DNA of 63,841 nt, the filler included, from Reclinomonas americana ATCC 50394 (Eukaryota), in the NCBI GenBank assembly GCA_048213135.1. It is 5 parts of 4 records of this genome, joined end to end, with 100 filler letters (N's around TTAATTAATTAA, not from the genome) between each part and the next. Parts side by side here need not be neighbours in the genome. Positions count along the whole stretch, not along the records: positions 1 to 30,364 come from PS015622.1; 4 more parts are not named here. One strand, 5' to 3'. The notes under the pieces are model-generated. The model saw only the letters and a program-made list of their open reading frames with translations. It made no database searches and had not been told where the DNA came from. Position 1 is the first letter of the stretch. Every line of letters starts with the position of its first letter. Shown piece by piece: positions 2,433-30,464 of this stretch. Both the position numbers and the translations under genes were made by a program.

Positions 2433-5400
2433 TTATCTGTCGGCTGCGGCCGACGACGACGACGACGACGCTGGCGGTCTCAGGTACTCGGCCAGATCGA
2501 CAGCCATGTTTGTCACGTTGCGCTGCAGCACACGCAAGAAGCCGCGCGATGCCGGCGGCACAATGCCCAGGGCGCGGCAAGCCGCCACGGCTGCCTCCGA
2601 CATCTCCGCCGATGATGACGATGCTGGCGCCGGTAGTGGTGGTGGTGCTGCTGCAGTCGACGAGGTGCCAGACACTGATGATGGTGGTGGTGGTTGCGAC
2701 GGTGCGGTGGCCGACAACTGGCGCAGAATCTCCAGCAACTCGTCGCCTTGCTGCAAGAAGTGGTACTGAATGATATCGGTGACGTCGCGTAGTCGCTGTG
2801 TGCGGGGAGAGTGAGTGTCACATGCACGCCTCATCTACGCAAGGAGTAGGCGGTACATACCGCAGCCAGCTCCAGCGACCTCCGCCGGTGTTGGAACATG
2901 AGCAGCACGACGCCCTCGTTGTACAGTTTCGCGTGATGCGCACCCTCATCTGTTCCGCGATACTTTTCGTATCCGGCCTCGTTGTAGTACGGTTCACCGT
3001 TCAGTACCAGGCCCTGGATGGAGACCAGGAGCTGCAGTAGGGTGCTGGCCGGCGTCCAACACTCACTTTCGTCCTTGGAGAACCACGTGCCGAGCAAGCT
3101 CACTGTCGCACACATCACGTGAGTTGAGTTGGGGGATAGGAAGGGAGAGTGAATGGAAGTGAGTGGGGACGAACAACAAACGGTGCCGTCCGTGTACATG
3201 TTCGGGTTGACTTTCTCCGAGTTCACACTGTGATACTTGACTCGAGGCGGACTCTGCGGGTAATCACCGGGCACCGCAATGTCGAACACAAAAATGCCGC
3301 CAAAGTACCTGCACATCGACAAGGTGAGTGTGGCCAGAGCGACTGCACACATGCACACTGTGTGCGCTCACGCAACGGCGTGCCTCGCGGACCAATCATG
3401 GCCGCGCGCAGCAGATCCAATCGTGACTCGAACAGTCGCACGTACACACCACCTGCCGTGAAAAATCGCCCGTGAGCAGCCAGACAGACAGCATCACATC
3501 GCACGTGTGGTAGCACGCAACTCGGCAAATCCGACTGCAGCGACGTCAAGTCCTGCTGTAGCCGGCGCATCGTGCTCGACGAGAACTCCTACCAGAGATA
3601 CTTGTCGATCAGCAACGACACGCAAATCGCCGCACACACCCACAAACACGAAAAGGGACGCACTGCTGGAGGATCCTGTGCAAACAGGTGGTCCACAGGG
3701 GCATCGTCCAGCATCTCAAATGTCGGCATCGATTCGCTGCAAAAAAAAATCGCCGAGTAAGGATCAACTGTGTTTCATCGAGTTGCAACAAGGCAAGAGA
3801 CACACCCTCTCGCTTGCATCTCTCGCAAGCGCGCCATGCTGGTGGCCAAAAACTGCAAGACACTCAGATGCTCAGTAACATCCAATCGCCACATCACAAC
3901 GCCACACCAACGGCTCACCTCCTGCACTGCGGCCTCCTGTGCGGTGCGCACAGCAGGAGCAGCAGCGGCGGCGGCGGCAGGCACGACACCACCACCCGGA
4001 GGCACGGACACGAGTTGACCGGCTGGCAGTGGGAACGCCGGCGCAACAGCAGAAGCTGCCGGCTGACCAGCGATTCCCTCCACGAGTCGATCGGCAGGCG
4101 CATGCAGTGCACGCAGCAACGAGTCTTCGTAGAACGGGTTGCCGCCGCGTTGCACTTGCAGAAGCGCAGCCGCTGCAGGACCTGCATGACCAAGTTCATC
4201 ATATCAGCGACAGATGAAAAACACAACACAATAACAAGGAACTTGATGGCAATGGTCACCTTGCTCCTGCTGCAGTGCATCTTCGATTTCCTCCGACATC
4301 TCTCCCTCCGACTGTTCGTCTTGCGGCGACAGCACAATGCACTCGAACGGAAGAATCTTGGATCTTGTGCCGTCCGACCATATCACGTCCAGCTTGCCGT
4401 TCTCCAGACCCACCACTTCACCCGTCCACTGCCCAGGGGGCGCTGGAGCTCCATTCGCCCCCTCGCCAGCAGCCACTTCTTCGGGCTCCGCAGCAGCATC
4501 TCCATCCCCTTCGCCGACCGCCGCAGGCTCGCCAGCCGGAGCGCCTGGCGGTGGAGCTGCTGGTTGTGCGCTTGAATCCAACTTCAGCACAATGTCTCCG
4601 AGACGAATCTGCGGCGGCGTTCACGTCAGTGAACTCACTCACTCATCGCACACACACATGTGCGAGAACAGACCTCATGATCGGCTGACGCCTCAATGTC
4701 GTACACGGACACGGTATCCACAGGTCCATCCGAGTCGTACGTCAAGCTGCGGCATCAATGAGCACCGCTACCACCACCATCACTTATATCTGCACTGATC
4801 CATCATACTCACGTGTCGGTTCGCGCATCGCGATTGTACCACCGCACATTGGCGGTACGATCGGCTGGATCCACGCTGAGAACGAAACCACACTGGCCAG
4901 CTGCGACCAAGATGGGGGTGAGGCAACCAGCACACAACTGGTGTGCAGAGTGGAACGCACGTTGGGCGCCTGGTGCATCGGGATGGCACATGACGAGATC
5001 ACCAGGGAAGAAGTCCAGATCCGCCACATCCAGCACCGGGCACAAGTCGATCGCACGGATTCCTCTGCACATCAGTCAGCGACCCAACACCAACATCAAC
5101 AGAAGAGTGCGGCGTCGACGCCTCACCGCTCCAGTGCGCCATCCTGCCACACCACATCGACCACAGTGTGCGTCATGGTTACCAGCACACAGCGCTTCAC
5201 CTGATCCTTGACGGCCGGCCACGAGAGCGGAACGTTAGCCGAGGATGCCGACGCGCCGGAACCGTCTGACCCTGAGCCACTTGCACCGTTCTTCTCCTCG
5301 TCGGCAGGAAACGAATTCTGCACCACGGGCGACGCAGCGCGCACCACACGCTCCATCACTCGACATCTGTGTTTCAGCACATCGCTCGAGGCCTTGGCCC

Positions 5401-25073: not shown

Positions 25074-28000
25074 ATGTCTGTCAGCAGCGGCATCGACACC
25101 TGCGTCGACGCTTGCATTCGCGGTGCGTGAGTGTGTGTGGCGACAACTGACGTGAACACTGGTTTTCGCGCGCTCAACACCCGCAATCACTTGCACAGAG
25201 TACCTCAGTCGTCGCAAGTACAAACAGACACTGGCGGCGTTCGACGCAGAGAATGTGCGTCTTTCTTGTTCACTGTGTGTGTGTCTCTCTCTCTCTTTCT
25301 CACAGTGCATCGCAGCCTCGCAACTCCTCGTCGATCTCTTCTCGAGGCGAGCTCGCCAAGCGTCTGTGCATTCAGTCCATCATCAAAGCCAATGAGAAGC
25401 GAGGTCGGCACTACTCTCGCACTCTCGCCGTGTGCCTCAAGCCTCATCGCGCTTGCACAGATCCACCACTGGTCTCCTTCTTGGAGATGATCGTGTGGCA
25501 TTTCATGGAGATTGCCGAGATCAAGAAGGAGAAGAAGCGACCGTCGACGGCGGCGGCTGCGGTGGAGGAGAGCAATGAGCGAGAGGAGGAGGTACGCAAG
25601 CCAGTGCGACCGGCATCGGCGCACGGCAACCGACCGCGCATGCCCGAGAGCGACGGAGCAGCAGCAGAGGCACCGCCGGCTGCTGCGAGCAAGGCTGGAT
25701 CGCTGCAAGTGCCGGCCTGTTTCGTCCACACGCCTTGTTGATGATGTTGGTGGTCACACTCACAAGGCATGTGTGTGCTTGCAGTCTTGTCCAAGCGACC
25801 GACGTCGGCACCGAGTGCGGCCACCAAGGCTGCCGAGCGAGAGGTTTTTTATTTGTAACGATGCTGTCGATGATCGTGTTGTCTCTCCCCACTCACTCGT
25901 GACATATCTTTTGACAGGCGTGTGTCATTGTGAAAAAGACGGGCGAAACCATCTATCGCTACCCCGGTCAGATCCACGGGTGCGCTCGTGCTGCGTTTGC
26001 CGATAACCGCCTCGGAGTTGTCTTCTTATTGTGTTTTGTAGAAATTCAATGGTGCTGGAGGACCTCACCAACTGCACCGTGTGCATCTGCGATCACTGTG
26101 CGCAGATCACGGTCGACAACTGCCACGACTGTCGCATTCTGATTGGCGCCAGCAGCGGCTCTGTCTCCGTGCGCGATACGACTCGCTGCCGATTGTACAT
26201 TTGCTGGTCTGTAATACTCTGTTCTTTCTGTTTCCCCTGCTGGCGCCTCACCACTTTCCTCTGTCGTCGTCATCGCATACAGCAAGCAGTTCCGTACACG
26301 TGGTCTCACCGACTCGGATGTGTGGATCTACTGCAAGACCGATCCGGGAATTGAGGATGCGACCAACCTGCGCTTCGGTCCGTTCAACGCGTTTTATCCA
26401 CGCGCCGACGAACACTTTGACGTTGCGCAGCCCCATCATGCCCCTTCCCCCAACTCCTGCTGATCGTCGCCGCAGGCCGCAAATCTCGAACGCGAGACCG
26501 ATCGTCACGAGTTTGTGTACGATTTCAGTCCGCAAGCCACCCGCGACTTCCCGCTGCCACACTGGCGCGAGATGACGCCCGCCGAGGCCGCTGCCGAGTG
26601 GATCATTGAGCTCCCGGAACCACCGGCCGGCTCGCCAGTGAAGCCGGAGAACTGGGGACCCCCCGTGCATCCCGTCGACCCGCAACGTCGTCCAACTGCA
26701 GTTTCGCGCCAAAATTCCCGTGCGCTGCGGTGAGTCACTCACAGATCCACACGCGCTCATGTCACGCCCGAGAATAACGCGCGAGACTGTGTACTGGTCT
26801 GCCTGAGGGAGAGAGAGAGCGCGCGCTGGGAGAAGAAGAAGGGAGGTGAAGAAAGTGCTGACTGTGTGTGTGATCAGGGAGGATGATCCGACGCCGCCCA
26901 CTCGATCCAGTGCATTCGGTGCTTCCTCATCTGCTGGCTCATCTTCTGCACCACGTGGAGCAGCAGCAGCAGGTGGAGGAGGAGGAGGAGGACGCGGTCT
27001 CTTTGCAGACACTGCAAGTGCTGTGCCATCATCTCTGCGCAAAGGTGATTGGATGCACGCAGATGCGCGTTGTCTCTCCCTCCTTCTGTGTTGCTCACTC
27101 TGCACATGTGTATACACACAGGTGACAGCGATGACGAGGATGATGGGCCACCGGCTGTGTTCCGCCGACCTTCGGCTGCTGCGGGTGGACGCAAGTCATC
27201 GTTGCGCATCTCTCTTTCCCTCTTGTCTCGTCCCTCATTGACACTGCGGTTACAGTCATGGAGCGGTCGATGCCGACGAGACTCCCATGAAGGTCAACGA
27301 AGTGATGGAGGAGGAGGATTTGGACGACGAGTTGGAGGAGTTGGATCGTTGCGTCTGTCCCTTTCCTCATCCTTCCTCACCCATGGGCTGACGCGGCGAG
27401 CAGGCGTGTCGCGTCCGGCTGGTGGAGCACGAAGCAGTGCCGGCGGTGCTGGACCGTCGACTGGCCCGCGCACTGTCAATATGCAGCGTGCGGAGCAGTT
27501 GACACCCGCTGTCAGCCGTCAACTTCGCTTGTTGCGTGGCGTGGGCGCCTGTGCTGTCGATGCCACGTTCCTGACCTGCCGCGTGCGTATATGTTTTTTC
27601 CGCGCGTAGGTTGCTGCTGGGTGAGCGGCTGTTGACGCCAGACTCGTGGCTGCAACAAGGATTGTTTTTCGAGACCAAGCAGGGCCTGCATTTTGGATTG
27701 GTCCAGAACAACGTGAGTGACGACGATGTGCATGGGGACTCTGTTGGAAGGCTGTCAACTCAGTACATGTGTGCCACCGCAGGGCGGCCCGTGTGGCGTG
27801 CTGGCGTGCATCAACGCGTACATTGTTTATTACATTTTGTTTGTGGAGCGTCGTGGCAACAGGTGTGATCGTATATGCTCTTGTCCTCTTCCACGCCCAC
27901 GAGACACTGAATGCGTTTCTATCGCACCCTGCAGTTTCCCGCAAGTGGCGGAGCACATGCAACGATCGGCTTTGGTTTATGCCATCACCGAGGTCATTTG

Positions 28001-29101
28001 GAACGTGGCCGAGGAGACAGGTGGAAATCGCGCTGTGATTGCCATGTTGCGTCGTGCGCACTCTCACGCTCTCTCTGTTAACCTTGCTTCATTCTCACAA
28101 TGTGCACTCGGCTCTCCCTGCAGTCCCGGCAAGGCACGCAGTCGCAATGACATTAATTTCGAGCAGGTGCGCTCGATCATCGTGGACAGCAAGGCGCAAG
28201 TGTCGGAGACCGTCGAGCAGCATCTGGCGTCGGTGAGTCCCTCGCCTAAAGCTTGTACGCATCGCCCTCCCTCAGTTTCATCACCGCCTTCTCATTATCT
28301 TTGATGACAGTTCCAAGAACGCGAAGGCCTCGGCGTGTTCATGGTCGCCATTAGCTGCGTGCTGACGCGCGGCATTGATCGTGTGCGGGCCGACATGGAT
28401 ACGCTGGTGTCGGACACGACGCTGATCTCGCAGCGCGGATACTGCTCGCAGGTATGCACTCACGCTTCGTAGTTTCTGTGCGCACATCAGACACAATGCC
28501 TGACTCGCACCGTCAGGAAATGATCAATCTCATGCTCGTCGGCCGCGCCTCGACCAACGTGTTTGACGGAATTCGCAAGCTTGAGGGTACGTTTTGTCGC
28601 GCAGCACTTTCCCGTCTCCTCCGCACTAACGTGTCGTGCAGGCGAAAGCATTGAGCTCAAGGGCATCCACAAGCGCTCCAAGGTCGGCTTCCTGACGCTG
28701 TTTGAGAAGTACGGGCACATGGAGGTCGGCGCGCACTACAAGGAGCCTGTGAGCCCTATCTGGGTCATTTGCAGCGAGAGCCACTACACCATCCTGTTCG
28801 CCAAGGAAGACATTCCATCGCGCCAACAGCAGCGCGGTCGCTTTGATCTGTGGTACTACGATCAGCTGGCGCAGCAGGATTCGTCCATCATTCTCACAAT
28901 CGGTGTGTGTGTGGTGTCTCTGTCTCCTCTCTCTTCGCACTCGCTCACTCACTCTCCTTGTGCCGTCGCGCAGACACCAGCAATCACGACTTCCAGCCAC
29001 CAGACAGCGACAAGGAGCTGGTGCCGCCAATCGACGACGTGATTCGCACCAAGTGGAAGCACGGGCAGGTGGATTGGAACGGCACACAACCCTTCCTGTA
29101 A
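25074..29101 (+). CDS. MINDY4-like deubiquitinase with N-terminal LisH-like region and internal RP2/TBCC domain
   Basis: CIREYLSRRKYKQTLAAFD..ISSRGEL; TBCC region GETIYRYPGQ..CKQFRTR..DPGIE..VYDF; MINDY region GLVQNNGGPCGVLA, GYCSQEMINLMLVGRA, PIWVICSESHYTILF, FDLWYYDQLA, PPIDDVIRTKW; continuous in-frame splicing. Confidence 0.85.
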
Positions 29102-29133
29102 AAAAAGCACCATTCTTCATTTTGATTACCTCT

Positions 29134-30257
29134 CTATGATTGGGGTTGGTCGTCGGCTGATGGTTTCGGTCTTTTTCGCTCTGGACTCGACGTGGAGTCG
29201 CCAACCTCATCGCTCGCCACGCCCGCGGCATCGGCAGCCGAGGGACTGCGCGATCGCTTGGTGGTGACAGGAGCAGCAGCAGCAGCAGCAGCAGCGTCGA
29301 CCTCCAACTCTGCGTCAAAGCTCGCTGCATATCTGGCCTCGATCGCCGCCACCGCCTCGGCCGCCTTTGCACGCATGATAGCAGGCGACACGGTCGGCGC
29401 CGCCACCGACTCCTGCAACGATGCCACCGCCCTCGCTCCGGCCTTCTTGCTCCGCATGCGCATCAGCTGCGCCTGAATCGCCGCCATTTGCGACGCCGCA
29501 CTGCGCATCGCCACAGTCACATGAGCAGCCACATCACGCGCAGAGAACAACAACAACAACGACAAAGCAACGCACGCAGAGGCAGCCTTGGCCGGCGCCG
29601 GCTTCTCCGCCTCCTTCTTCTTCGTCTTCTCCTCGCCCGTCGCCGGCTGCTGCGCCTCCGGCCGCTGCGCAACACGCATGATGAGCAGCATGGCCACTTG
29701 TCGCCCACTCATACAACACACGTACTCACCCGATCCTCCCAAAACTTCACTATCAGTCGTCGCCCCAAGAACTCCGTGCCGTTCAACTCTTCGATCGCTC
29801 GCTCCGCATCCTACATGCATTGTGAGCACACGCAGGGCGGGGAGAGTGTGTGTGTAAGAGTGAGAGTGAGAGACCTCACGCGTCTCATACTCGACCACCG
29901 CGTAGCCTCGTGGCTCTCCACGACGCGGACCACTCGTGTGAAACATGTACTCCAGTCGCGCAATCTTCCCGACTGGCGAGAACTTTTGCAGCACGTGAAT
30001 CCTGCGTGGCGCAGTCAGTCTGTGAGTAACTGGCATGAAAGAGAGAGAGAGAGAACGCAACTCGCGTGCTCTCAAGTCCAAGTTTCCCACAAACAGCTTG
30101 CATTCGACATTCTCCGCGCGTTCCTCTTTGGAGAACAGGTGCTCGCCAGTGCGCTCATAAGCCTATACACACACAGAGTGTGTAAGTGACAGAGAGACAG
30201 GCTCACACACGCAGAGAGAAGCGCAACTCGATCACGAAAGCGACCGCGACTGCTCAT
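29134..30257 (-). CDS. RBM18: RRM protein, RBM18-like
   Basis: KLFVGNLDLRAREIHVLQKFSPVGKIARLEYMFHTSGPRRGEPRGYAVVEY; C-terminal AAIQAQLMRM. Confidence 0.82.
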
Positions 30258-30364
30258 AAACGAAGTGAGAGAGTGAAGAGGTGGCGCAATTTCGTTTCAC
30301 ACGCGCGCGAAACTTTCTTTGACGCACCTCACACGCGTCACTCTCTCACTCACTCTCACTCACA

Positions 30365-30464
30365 NNNNNNNNNNNNNNNNNNNNNNNNNNNNNNNNNNNN
30401 NNNNNNNNTTAATTAATTAANNNNNNNNNNNNNNNNNNNNNNNNNNNNNNNNNNNNNNNNNNNN
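30365..30464. other. Artificial scaffold spacer (N44-TTAATTAATTAA-N44)
   Basis: All-frame stop linker at 30409-30420 inside N runs; the same linker occurs at 56562, 59799 and 62568. Confidence 0.95.

Follow-up and report, generated by a model that had tools for sequence, protein, structure and literature searches.

Does a single gene of Reclinomonas americana ATCC 50394 carry an RP2/tubulin cofactor C (TBCC)-type beta-helix between the two ends of a MINDY-4 deubiquitinase, or do two genes share the locus? The window analysed here, a stretch of 63,841 nucleotides made up of five parts of GenBank assembly GCA_048213135.1, contains a candidate gene at 25074–29101 (plus strand, record PS015622.1), which starts with an ATG at 25074 and closes with a TAA ending at 29101; both ends were confirmed as the initial annotation had placed them. 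Three parts follow each other on this strand: a MINDY-4-type N-terminal domain, an RP2/TBCC beta-helix, and a MINDY-3/4 catalytic domain. The initial annotation had assigned all three to one gene. Its account of their content, order and motifs was correct and the N-terminal domain is soundly linked to the TBCC module, whereas the link to the catalytic domain is probable only; one fused MINDY-4 gene carrying all three parts is the reading that we prefer, with moderate confidence. The parts are encoded as follows:

25074–25122, 25199–25254, 25316–25403 and 25461–25718, plus strand: exons 1–4, MINDY-4-type N-terminal domain, then a disordered Ala/Glu/Pro-rich stretch
25785–25843, plus strand: candidate exon 5, encoding a short connector rich in Ser, Ala and Lys
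25918–25979, 26042–26206, 26283–26421 and 26476–26729, plus strand: exons 6–9, RP2/TBCC-type beta-helix with arginine finger
27610–27712, 27783–27862, 27935–28045 and 28124–28232, plus strand: exons 14–17, first part of the MINDY-3/4 catalytic domain
28311–28451, 28517–28586, 28642–28902 and 28974–29101, plus strand: exons 18–21, rest of the MINDY-3/4 catalytic domain, with TAA at 29099–29101

The N-terminal domain spans about aa 1–95 and is encoded by exons 1–4 (25074–25718). In a blastp search with aa 1–170 of the model, residues about 4–96 aligned with the very start of the chain in at least 43 of 153 MINDY-3/4 relatives, with E values down to 1e-16, and a MAFFT alignment with the MINDY-4 proteins of frog, amphioxus, Cyanophora, Volvox, Ancoracysta and an ascidian agreed, bearing out the MINDY4-type N-terminus that had been claimed. 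In the same alignment the predicted Met of the gene falls on the Met of the relatives, and the exon 2/3 junction is borne out as chosen. The region covers positions 18–112 of the family hidden Markov model (HMM). Codon usage was assessed by a log-odds score trained on the homology-backed exons, which under leave-one-out called the frame correctly in 16 of 16 segments, with margins of at least 16 bits; by this score, exons 1–4 are positive in the model frame. Training on the other long open reading frames (ORFs) of the window was dropped, as these read through introns.

The domain is likely a dimerisation or targeting module. The LisH-like stretch is interrupted by an intron. LisH or FOP-dimer character is weakly suggested, as a lead: a LisH scan of 12 MINDY-4 relatives (their proteins, not that of the window; E up to 1) gave one match just under the cut-off (19.5 versus 21.6 bits), and a FOP_dimer scan of 12 relatives at the same E limit gave matches in 3 of 12, all sub-threshold. 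Some MINDY-4 relatives (P0033, P0065 and, by eye, P0003) have a Myb/SANT-like domain in the N-terminal region, replacing or beside the usual domain, and another (P0062) is fused to Hus1; the front half of the MINDY-4 family thus accepts other modules, or some of these gene models are merged.

The middle part was recognized in Pfam scans, which were run on stop-to-stop ORF pieces. TBCC (PF07986; cut-off 24.8 bits) matched the ORFs 26007–26354 (7.3e-10, 39.2 bits) and 26215–26463 (8e-12, 45.5 bits), covering profile positions 2–64 and 48–105 of 120. In phmmer searches against PDB sequences, exons 7 and 8 aligned to residues 62–110 and 115–157 of human RP2 (2bx6/3bh6); human and Leishmania TBCC were matched as well, and the summed bit scores of 53.9 for RP2, 41.1 for human TBCC and 39.8 for Leishmania TBCC appear to favour RP2 only slightly. 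The equivalents of the RP2 arginine finger, Arg118, and of Glu138, Gln116, Arg120 and Ser99 are retained in the phmmer alignment, with KQFRTR and PGIE aligning to RP2 115–120 and 138, and these alignments together with the PF07986 matches support the full RP2-like beta-helix with KQFR and PGIE described in the initial annotation. The YDF string, which had been put forward as a retained DF motif, is present; its correspondence to the DF of RP2 is an assumption. The RP2-like region presumably extends into exon 6. Leave-one-out codon scores of exons 6–9 ranged from +14.8, for exon 6, to +39.3. The exon-9 peptide alone gave no match to an RP2 chain in the PDB, and exon 7, searched against the ESM Atlas, had TBCC and CAP_C clusters as its sole matches, which are uninformative on fusion.

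Compared with human RP2 (XRP2; 2bx6, 3bh6/3bh7) and tubulin cofactor C (TBCC; 2yuh, 5aj8), the module shares the beta-helix and the catalytic face. It differs from human RP2 in having Lys at Gln115 and Ser at Phe101, both on the Arl3-facing surface, and in lacking an NDK-like C-terminal domain and an RP2-type N-terminus. Critical roles of these RP2 residues are described in PMC4539340. Pfam detected no NDK domain in any ORF piece, and an RP2-type N-terminus with a myristoylation/palmitoylation signal (RP2 is myristoylated there; PMC3879569) is excluded by position, the module beginning about 170 aa in, behind the MINDY-4 domain. We would therefore not file the module as an RP2 orthologue, though it may act like one; as judged from its residues, it is likely a GTPase-activating protein (GAP) domain for an Arl-type GTPase or tubulin.

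The third part was matched by the Pfam family MINDY-3_4_CD (PF13898; cut-off 27) in five co-linear ORF pieces within 27717–29101, the best being the exon-20 ORF (9e-28, 97.7 bits), with three others at 27.5–34.9 bits and one at 26.5; exons 14–21 cover family HMM positions 281–623 co-linearly. A phmmer search of exon 20 against 1.84 billion representatives yielded 1086 matches, the best with 57–59% identity. The catalytic residues are the Gln in VQNN, the Cys in GGPCG and the His in SESHY. In a MAFFT alignment of 9 relatives, the GGPCG and SESHY columns are invariant or nearly so and the Gln lies 6 residues ahead of the Cys; an intron interrupts QNN|GGPCG, and this spacing assumes that intron 27713–27782 is spliced as modelled. 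The SESHY His, encoded by exon 20, aligns with chain residue 289 of the MINDY-3 structure 9rmd, which we take to be the catalytic His287, assuming a 2-residue tag offset. The strings QNNGGPCG and SHY, named at the outset as carrying Gln, Cys and His, are thus present and aligned to relatives, the His also to 9rmd. The Gln-Cys spacing is the same in MINDY3, of which Q45, C51 and H287 are given as oxyanion Gln, catalytic Cys and catalytic His in preprint 10.1101/2025.07.16.665128. The exon-15 peptide alone gave no match to a MINDY chain in the PDB. In the region of the two exons that precede this part (27256–27530), the Leu-Arg ahead of LLLG fits the family pattern in the MAFFT alignment. The domain is likely a trimmer of K48-linked ubiquitin chains.

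Are the first two parts one gene? Exon 6 (25918–25979) contains no ATG, and an in-frame stop at 25912–25914 lies at its acceptor. It must therefore be spliced to exon 4 or exon 5, which continue the MINDY-4 N-terminal ORF. Candidate exon 5 has a weak codon score of +4.2 bits in the model frame, with an acceptor scoring 10.3 and a donor scoring 5.7, and may be skipped, an in-frame alternative from donor 25709 to acceptor 25917 being possible as well. The N-terminal domain and the TBCC module very probably belong to a single gene; a separate TBCC gene nested within a MINDY-4 intron was rejected, exon 6 having no start of its own and being closed upstream by a stop.

The join of the TBCC module to the catalytic domain depends on the region between exons 9 and 14, in which the following features were located:

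26654–26664, plus strand: GGGGACCCCCC, a homopolymer pair (G4AC6 run) at which the codon signal changes from frame 1 to frame 2 (per-codon scores)
26730–26735, plus strand: GTGAGT donor, overlapping the in-frame TGA 26731–26733 that closes the TBCC frame
26736–27255, plus strand: linker, with candidate exons 26878–27044 (containing a CAG/GAG microsatellite) and 27122–27200
26877, 27121 and 27255, plus strand: linker acceptor candidates, scoring 3.0, 6.5 and 1.7, respectively
26883 and about 27104, plus strand: linker ATGs
27256–27347 (ATG 27287) and 27404–27530, plus strand: an acidic exon and a Gly/Ala/Ser-rich exon, with GTTGCG-type donors at 27348 and 27531

Several findings argue for fusion. 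The TBCC exons are flanked by both halves of a normal MINDY-4, and these halves share one chain in 70 of 70 proteins retrieved with the frog MINDY-4 N-terminus and in all five metagenome loci that hold both. The GTGAGT at 26730 scores 7.6 and overlaps the sole stop in the TBCC frame; donor scores of at least 7.5 occur at 1 of 241 antisense GT sites and at 13 of 282 sense GT sites, 9 of the latter being donors of the model. A CTGAC branch-like motif lies ahead of acceptor 26877, and each of the three GTTGCG donors of the linker region (27201, 27348 and 27531) has a CAG or TAG acceptor at a distance usual for introns here (+55, +56 and +79). Both enzyme domains have kept a strong codon bias and their key residues.

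The initial annotation had relied on a continuous spliced frame. Such a frame is reproducible by spliced-model building as 865 aa in 21 exons from ATG 25074 to TAA 29101, with canonical GT...AG introns and without internal stop; it has no value as evidence for one gene, other paths being equally open. Four fused paths in all are open in frame (865, 783, 806 and 859 aa), and an open spliced path likewise runs from the last exon of the separate upstream gene into exons 1–3. Frame continuity carries little weight because an open path also crosses a true gene boundary, and the upstream boundary is certainly real because the Met of the gene aligns with that of its relatives.

This path across the upstream boundary is one of several observations that weigh against a single gene. 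The candidate exon 26878–27044 scores –47.5 bits in the frame of the initial annotation, like an off-frame; another frame reaches about +19, only by way of the (CAG)4...(GAG)5 repeat, and the flanks are negative in all frames. Outside this repeat, 26736–27255 scores as non-coding, with 27122–27200 neutral. The end of exon 9, 26665–26729, scores –8.8 bits in frame 1, as used in the initial annotation, versus +13.4 in frame 2, a value reached by 18 of 2000 shuffles and, per codon, above the best frame of 13 of 13 confident introns; the best-scoring frames require a 1-base error at 26654–26664 or the weak donor 26720 (score 2.4), and the frame switch may be a 1-base assembly error. With one base less in this run, the closing 21 codons of exon 9 would follow the frame preferred by codon usage, and the donor at 26730 would match acceptor 27121 in phase, with 27122–27200 read in its best frame. 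The exon structure originally given for 26665–27255 is at odds with these codon statistics. Moreover, the junction intron 26730–26877 would measure 148 nt, and those of the other paths 402–526 nt, versus 54–78 nt for confirmed introns; a catalytic gene of its own could begin at the ATG at 26883, about 27104 or 27287; and the fusion is seen in one genome only. The acidic exon is strongly coding from its ATG onwards (27287–27347, +34.8 bits) and neutral in the ten codons ahead of it (27257–27286, +0.9).

The imperfect (CAG)4 GTG (GAG)5 microsatellite at 26951–26999 gives a false-looking coding signal in one frame. A dynamic-programming splice/codon parse of 26476–27712 was rejected, since it returned patchworks of tiny exons or long introns that varied with the intron penalty. 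Family HMM and blastp searches showed no significant homology for any frame of the linker.

These observations lend weight to the strongest alternative, which is less probable than fusion and which we consider possible, if on the unlikely side: two genes, A at 25074–26733 (about 376 aa, N-terminal domain plus TBCC, closed by the TGA at 26731) and B, a catalytic domain without its usual N-terminus, starting at ATG 26883, about 27104 or 27287. A would be an analogue of Trypanosoma brucei TbRP2, and an ancestral MINDY-4 gene would have been split by the stop that came with the inserted TBCC segment. The TGA lies in frame, the stretch behind it up to 27255 appears non-coding, strong coding begins at ATG 27287, and ATG 26883 sits three codons past a stop in its own frame. 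The spacing would be unexceptional, as the stop of the upstream gene on the same strand (24972) lies about 100 nt from ATG 25074 and short spacers are normal here, and a LisH plus TBCC protein works on its own in trypanosomes (PMC3879569). However, the stop sits within a perfect GTGAGT donor, a kind of site that chance seldom produces, and the split would need fission of a gene whose halves share one chain in all other proteins examined. Furthermore, the family HMM found no second N-terminal domain upstream of the catalytic part, and the pairing of GTTGCG 27201 with acceptor 27255 points to a spliced exon ahead of ATG 27287. A damaged or mis-assembled locus, with MINDY-4 disrupted by a recently inserted TBCC fragment (downstream decay or pseudogene) or with contig indel errors in the linker, could account for the frame change at the G4AC6 run and for the lack, across 26665–27255, of a clean series of exons whose introns are typical and whose codon scores are positive, in a window with 17 N runs, but is improbable given homology-backed exons that are intact on both sides (16 of 16 segments in the right frame, canonical splice sites, no frameshift), the retained key residues of both enzymes, and the absence of N runs from 24240–30364.

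A single fused gene would have arisen when a genomic copy of an RP2/cofactor-C-type beta-helix module, together with its introns, entered the disordered middle of a MINDY-4 gene. Use of the GTGAGT at 26730 would splice out the TGA, so that the catalytic exons would follow in the same mRNA, and the predicted product would have about 780–870 aa, its size being set by linker splicing. In such a protein, the N-terminal LisH/FOP-dimer-like domain would dimerise or target the chain, the arginine-finger face of the TBCC module would promote the hydrolysis of GTP by an Arl-type GTPase or tubulin, and a low-complexity acidic linker would lead into the MINDY-3/4 cysteine protease domain, which would trim ubiquitin chains on nearby substrates. 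A location at the basal body and a coupled GAP and deubiquitinase action may be conjectured from this arrangement.

The combination appears not to occur elsewhere in the proteins, loci and literature searched. TBCC was absent from 56 of 56 MINDY-4 relatives of at least 560 aa (out of 150 listed among the 1086 phmmer matches, 94 shorter ones lying outside the scan) and from 80 of 80 metagenome loci, most of 1–7 kb, five of which also hold the N-terminal domain with no TBCC between the parts. All 70 proteins retrieved with the frog N-terminus likewise lacked TBCC; their precomputed annotations list the N-terminal family PF26038 and PF13898 and nothing else, which bears out, on the vertebrate side, the earlier statement that animal MINDY4 has no TBCC domain. 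A word-index protein search with the exon-20 peptide retrieved three relatives, none with TBCC, and one with the exon-8 TBCC peptide returned no candidate, in itself weak evidence. Full-text literature searches on MINDY4, FAM188B or DUF4205 with TBCC, RP2 or Arl3, which did not extend to InterPro architectures, retrieved no paper describing a TBCC–MINDY fusion, in keeping with the initial annotation, whose author knew of none.

MINDY-4, an orphan deubiquitinase, is conserved across eukaryotes, with proteins in frogs, fishes, amphioxus, an ascidian, Volvox and Cyanophora. The candidate resembles MINDY-4/FAM188B in its N-terminal start domain, in a catalytic domain at the C-terminus that has Gln, Cys and His, and in its disordered acidic middle, with identities to relatives of about 36–46% in the N-terminal domain and 50–59% in exon 20; it differs by the RP2/TBCC beta-helix of about 175 aa in the middle. 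An intron-rich genome such as this one is unlikely for a kinetoplastid. LisH plus TBCC was, in 2013, reported in kinetoplastids only (PMC3879569), and because of this restriction and the improbable kinetoplastid nature of the genome, a LisH-TBCC arrangement at this locus would be of independent origin. The same source supports the earlier description of trypanosome RP2 as LisH/TOF plus TBCC: in TbRP2, a LisH-type N-terminal module precedes a TBCC GAP domain whose arginine is conserved, much as a possibly LisH-like module does here, and its N-terminal motifs suffice for targeting to mature basal bodies. In contrast to TbRP2, the N-terminal module here is of the MINDY-4 type rather than the TOF-LisH of FOP/OFD1 type, and TbRP2 has no protease domain.

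MINDY-4 is without an established cellular role, and the publications retrieved on it concern cancer cell lines. A fusion with an RP2/TBCC GAP, behind an N-terminus that weakly resembles centrosomal FOP/LisH dimerisation domains, would suggest that the substrates of MINDY-4 may be ciliary or centriolar ones linked to tubulin or Arl. Doubtful, and offered as speculation, is the further step of taking the single protein as a "Rosetta stone" fusion that would place MINDY-4 at the basal body, in one pathway with RP2, Arl3 and the control of tubulin GTPase, with the LisH/FOP-dimer-like N-terminus as a centriolar address. If true, the LisH-TBCC design of trypanosomes would have evolved anew and independently in this lineage, here with a direct connection to the trimming of ubiquitin chains. 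Even with a separate catalytic gene, the N-terminal domain plus TBCC would add to the trypanosome protein another case, of independent origin, in which a LisH-type module stands before an RP2-like GAP.

The G+C content of roughly 55–65% and the short introns are those of eukaryotic nuclear DNA. The homology-backed introns of the gene model (n = 13) measure 54–78 nt, with GTGCGT, GTGAGT or GTTGCG as donors and mostly CAG as acceptors; a window-wide census of codon-supported introns was rejected as a base rate for intron length, its pairs mostly skipping exons. GTTGCG[C/T] is apparently a regular 5' splice-site variant of this genome (sites 26422, 27201, 27348, 27531 and 28046). The donors at 26422 and 28046 are supported by protein homology, and the hexamer GTTGCG occurs 40 and 44 times on the two strands of the whole window versus 17.9 expected. 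Several of the N runs come as pairs of 44 N's 12 bases apart (e.g., 30365–30408 and 30421–30464) and may be assembly gaps or masked stretches.

Pfam matches of neighbouring ORFs comprise a kinesin motor (14454–14948, 1.3e-40), an RPN6 N-terminal domain (17543–18445, 2.4e-12) and a ubiquitin-conjugating enzyme (2834–3367, 1.6e-12), an ordinary nuclear gene set. A long minus-strand ORF at 29134–30162, RRM-like by eye and without a Pfam match at E ≤ 0.001, ends about 30 nt from the stop of the candidate gene at 29101, with which it would form a convergent pair; the genome appears very compact.

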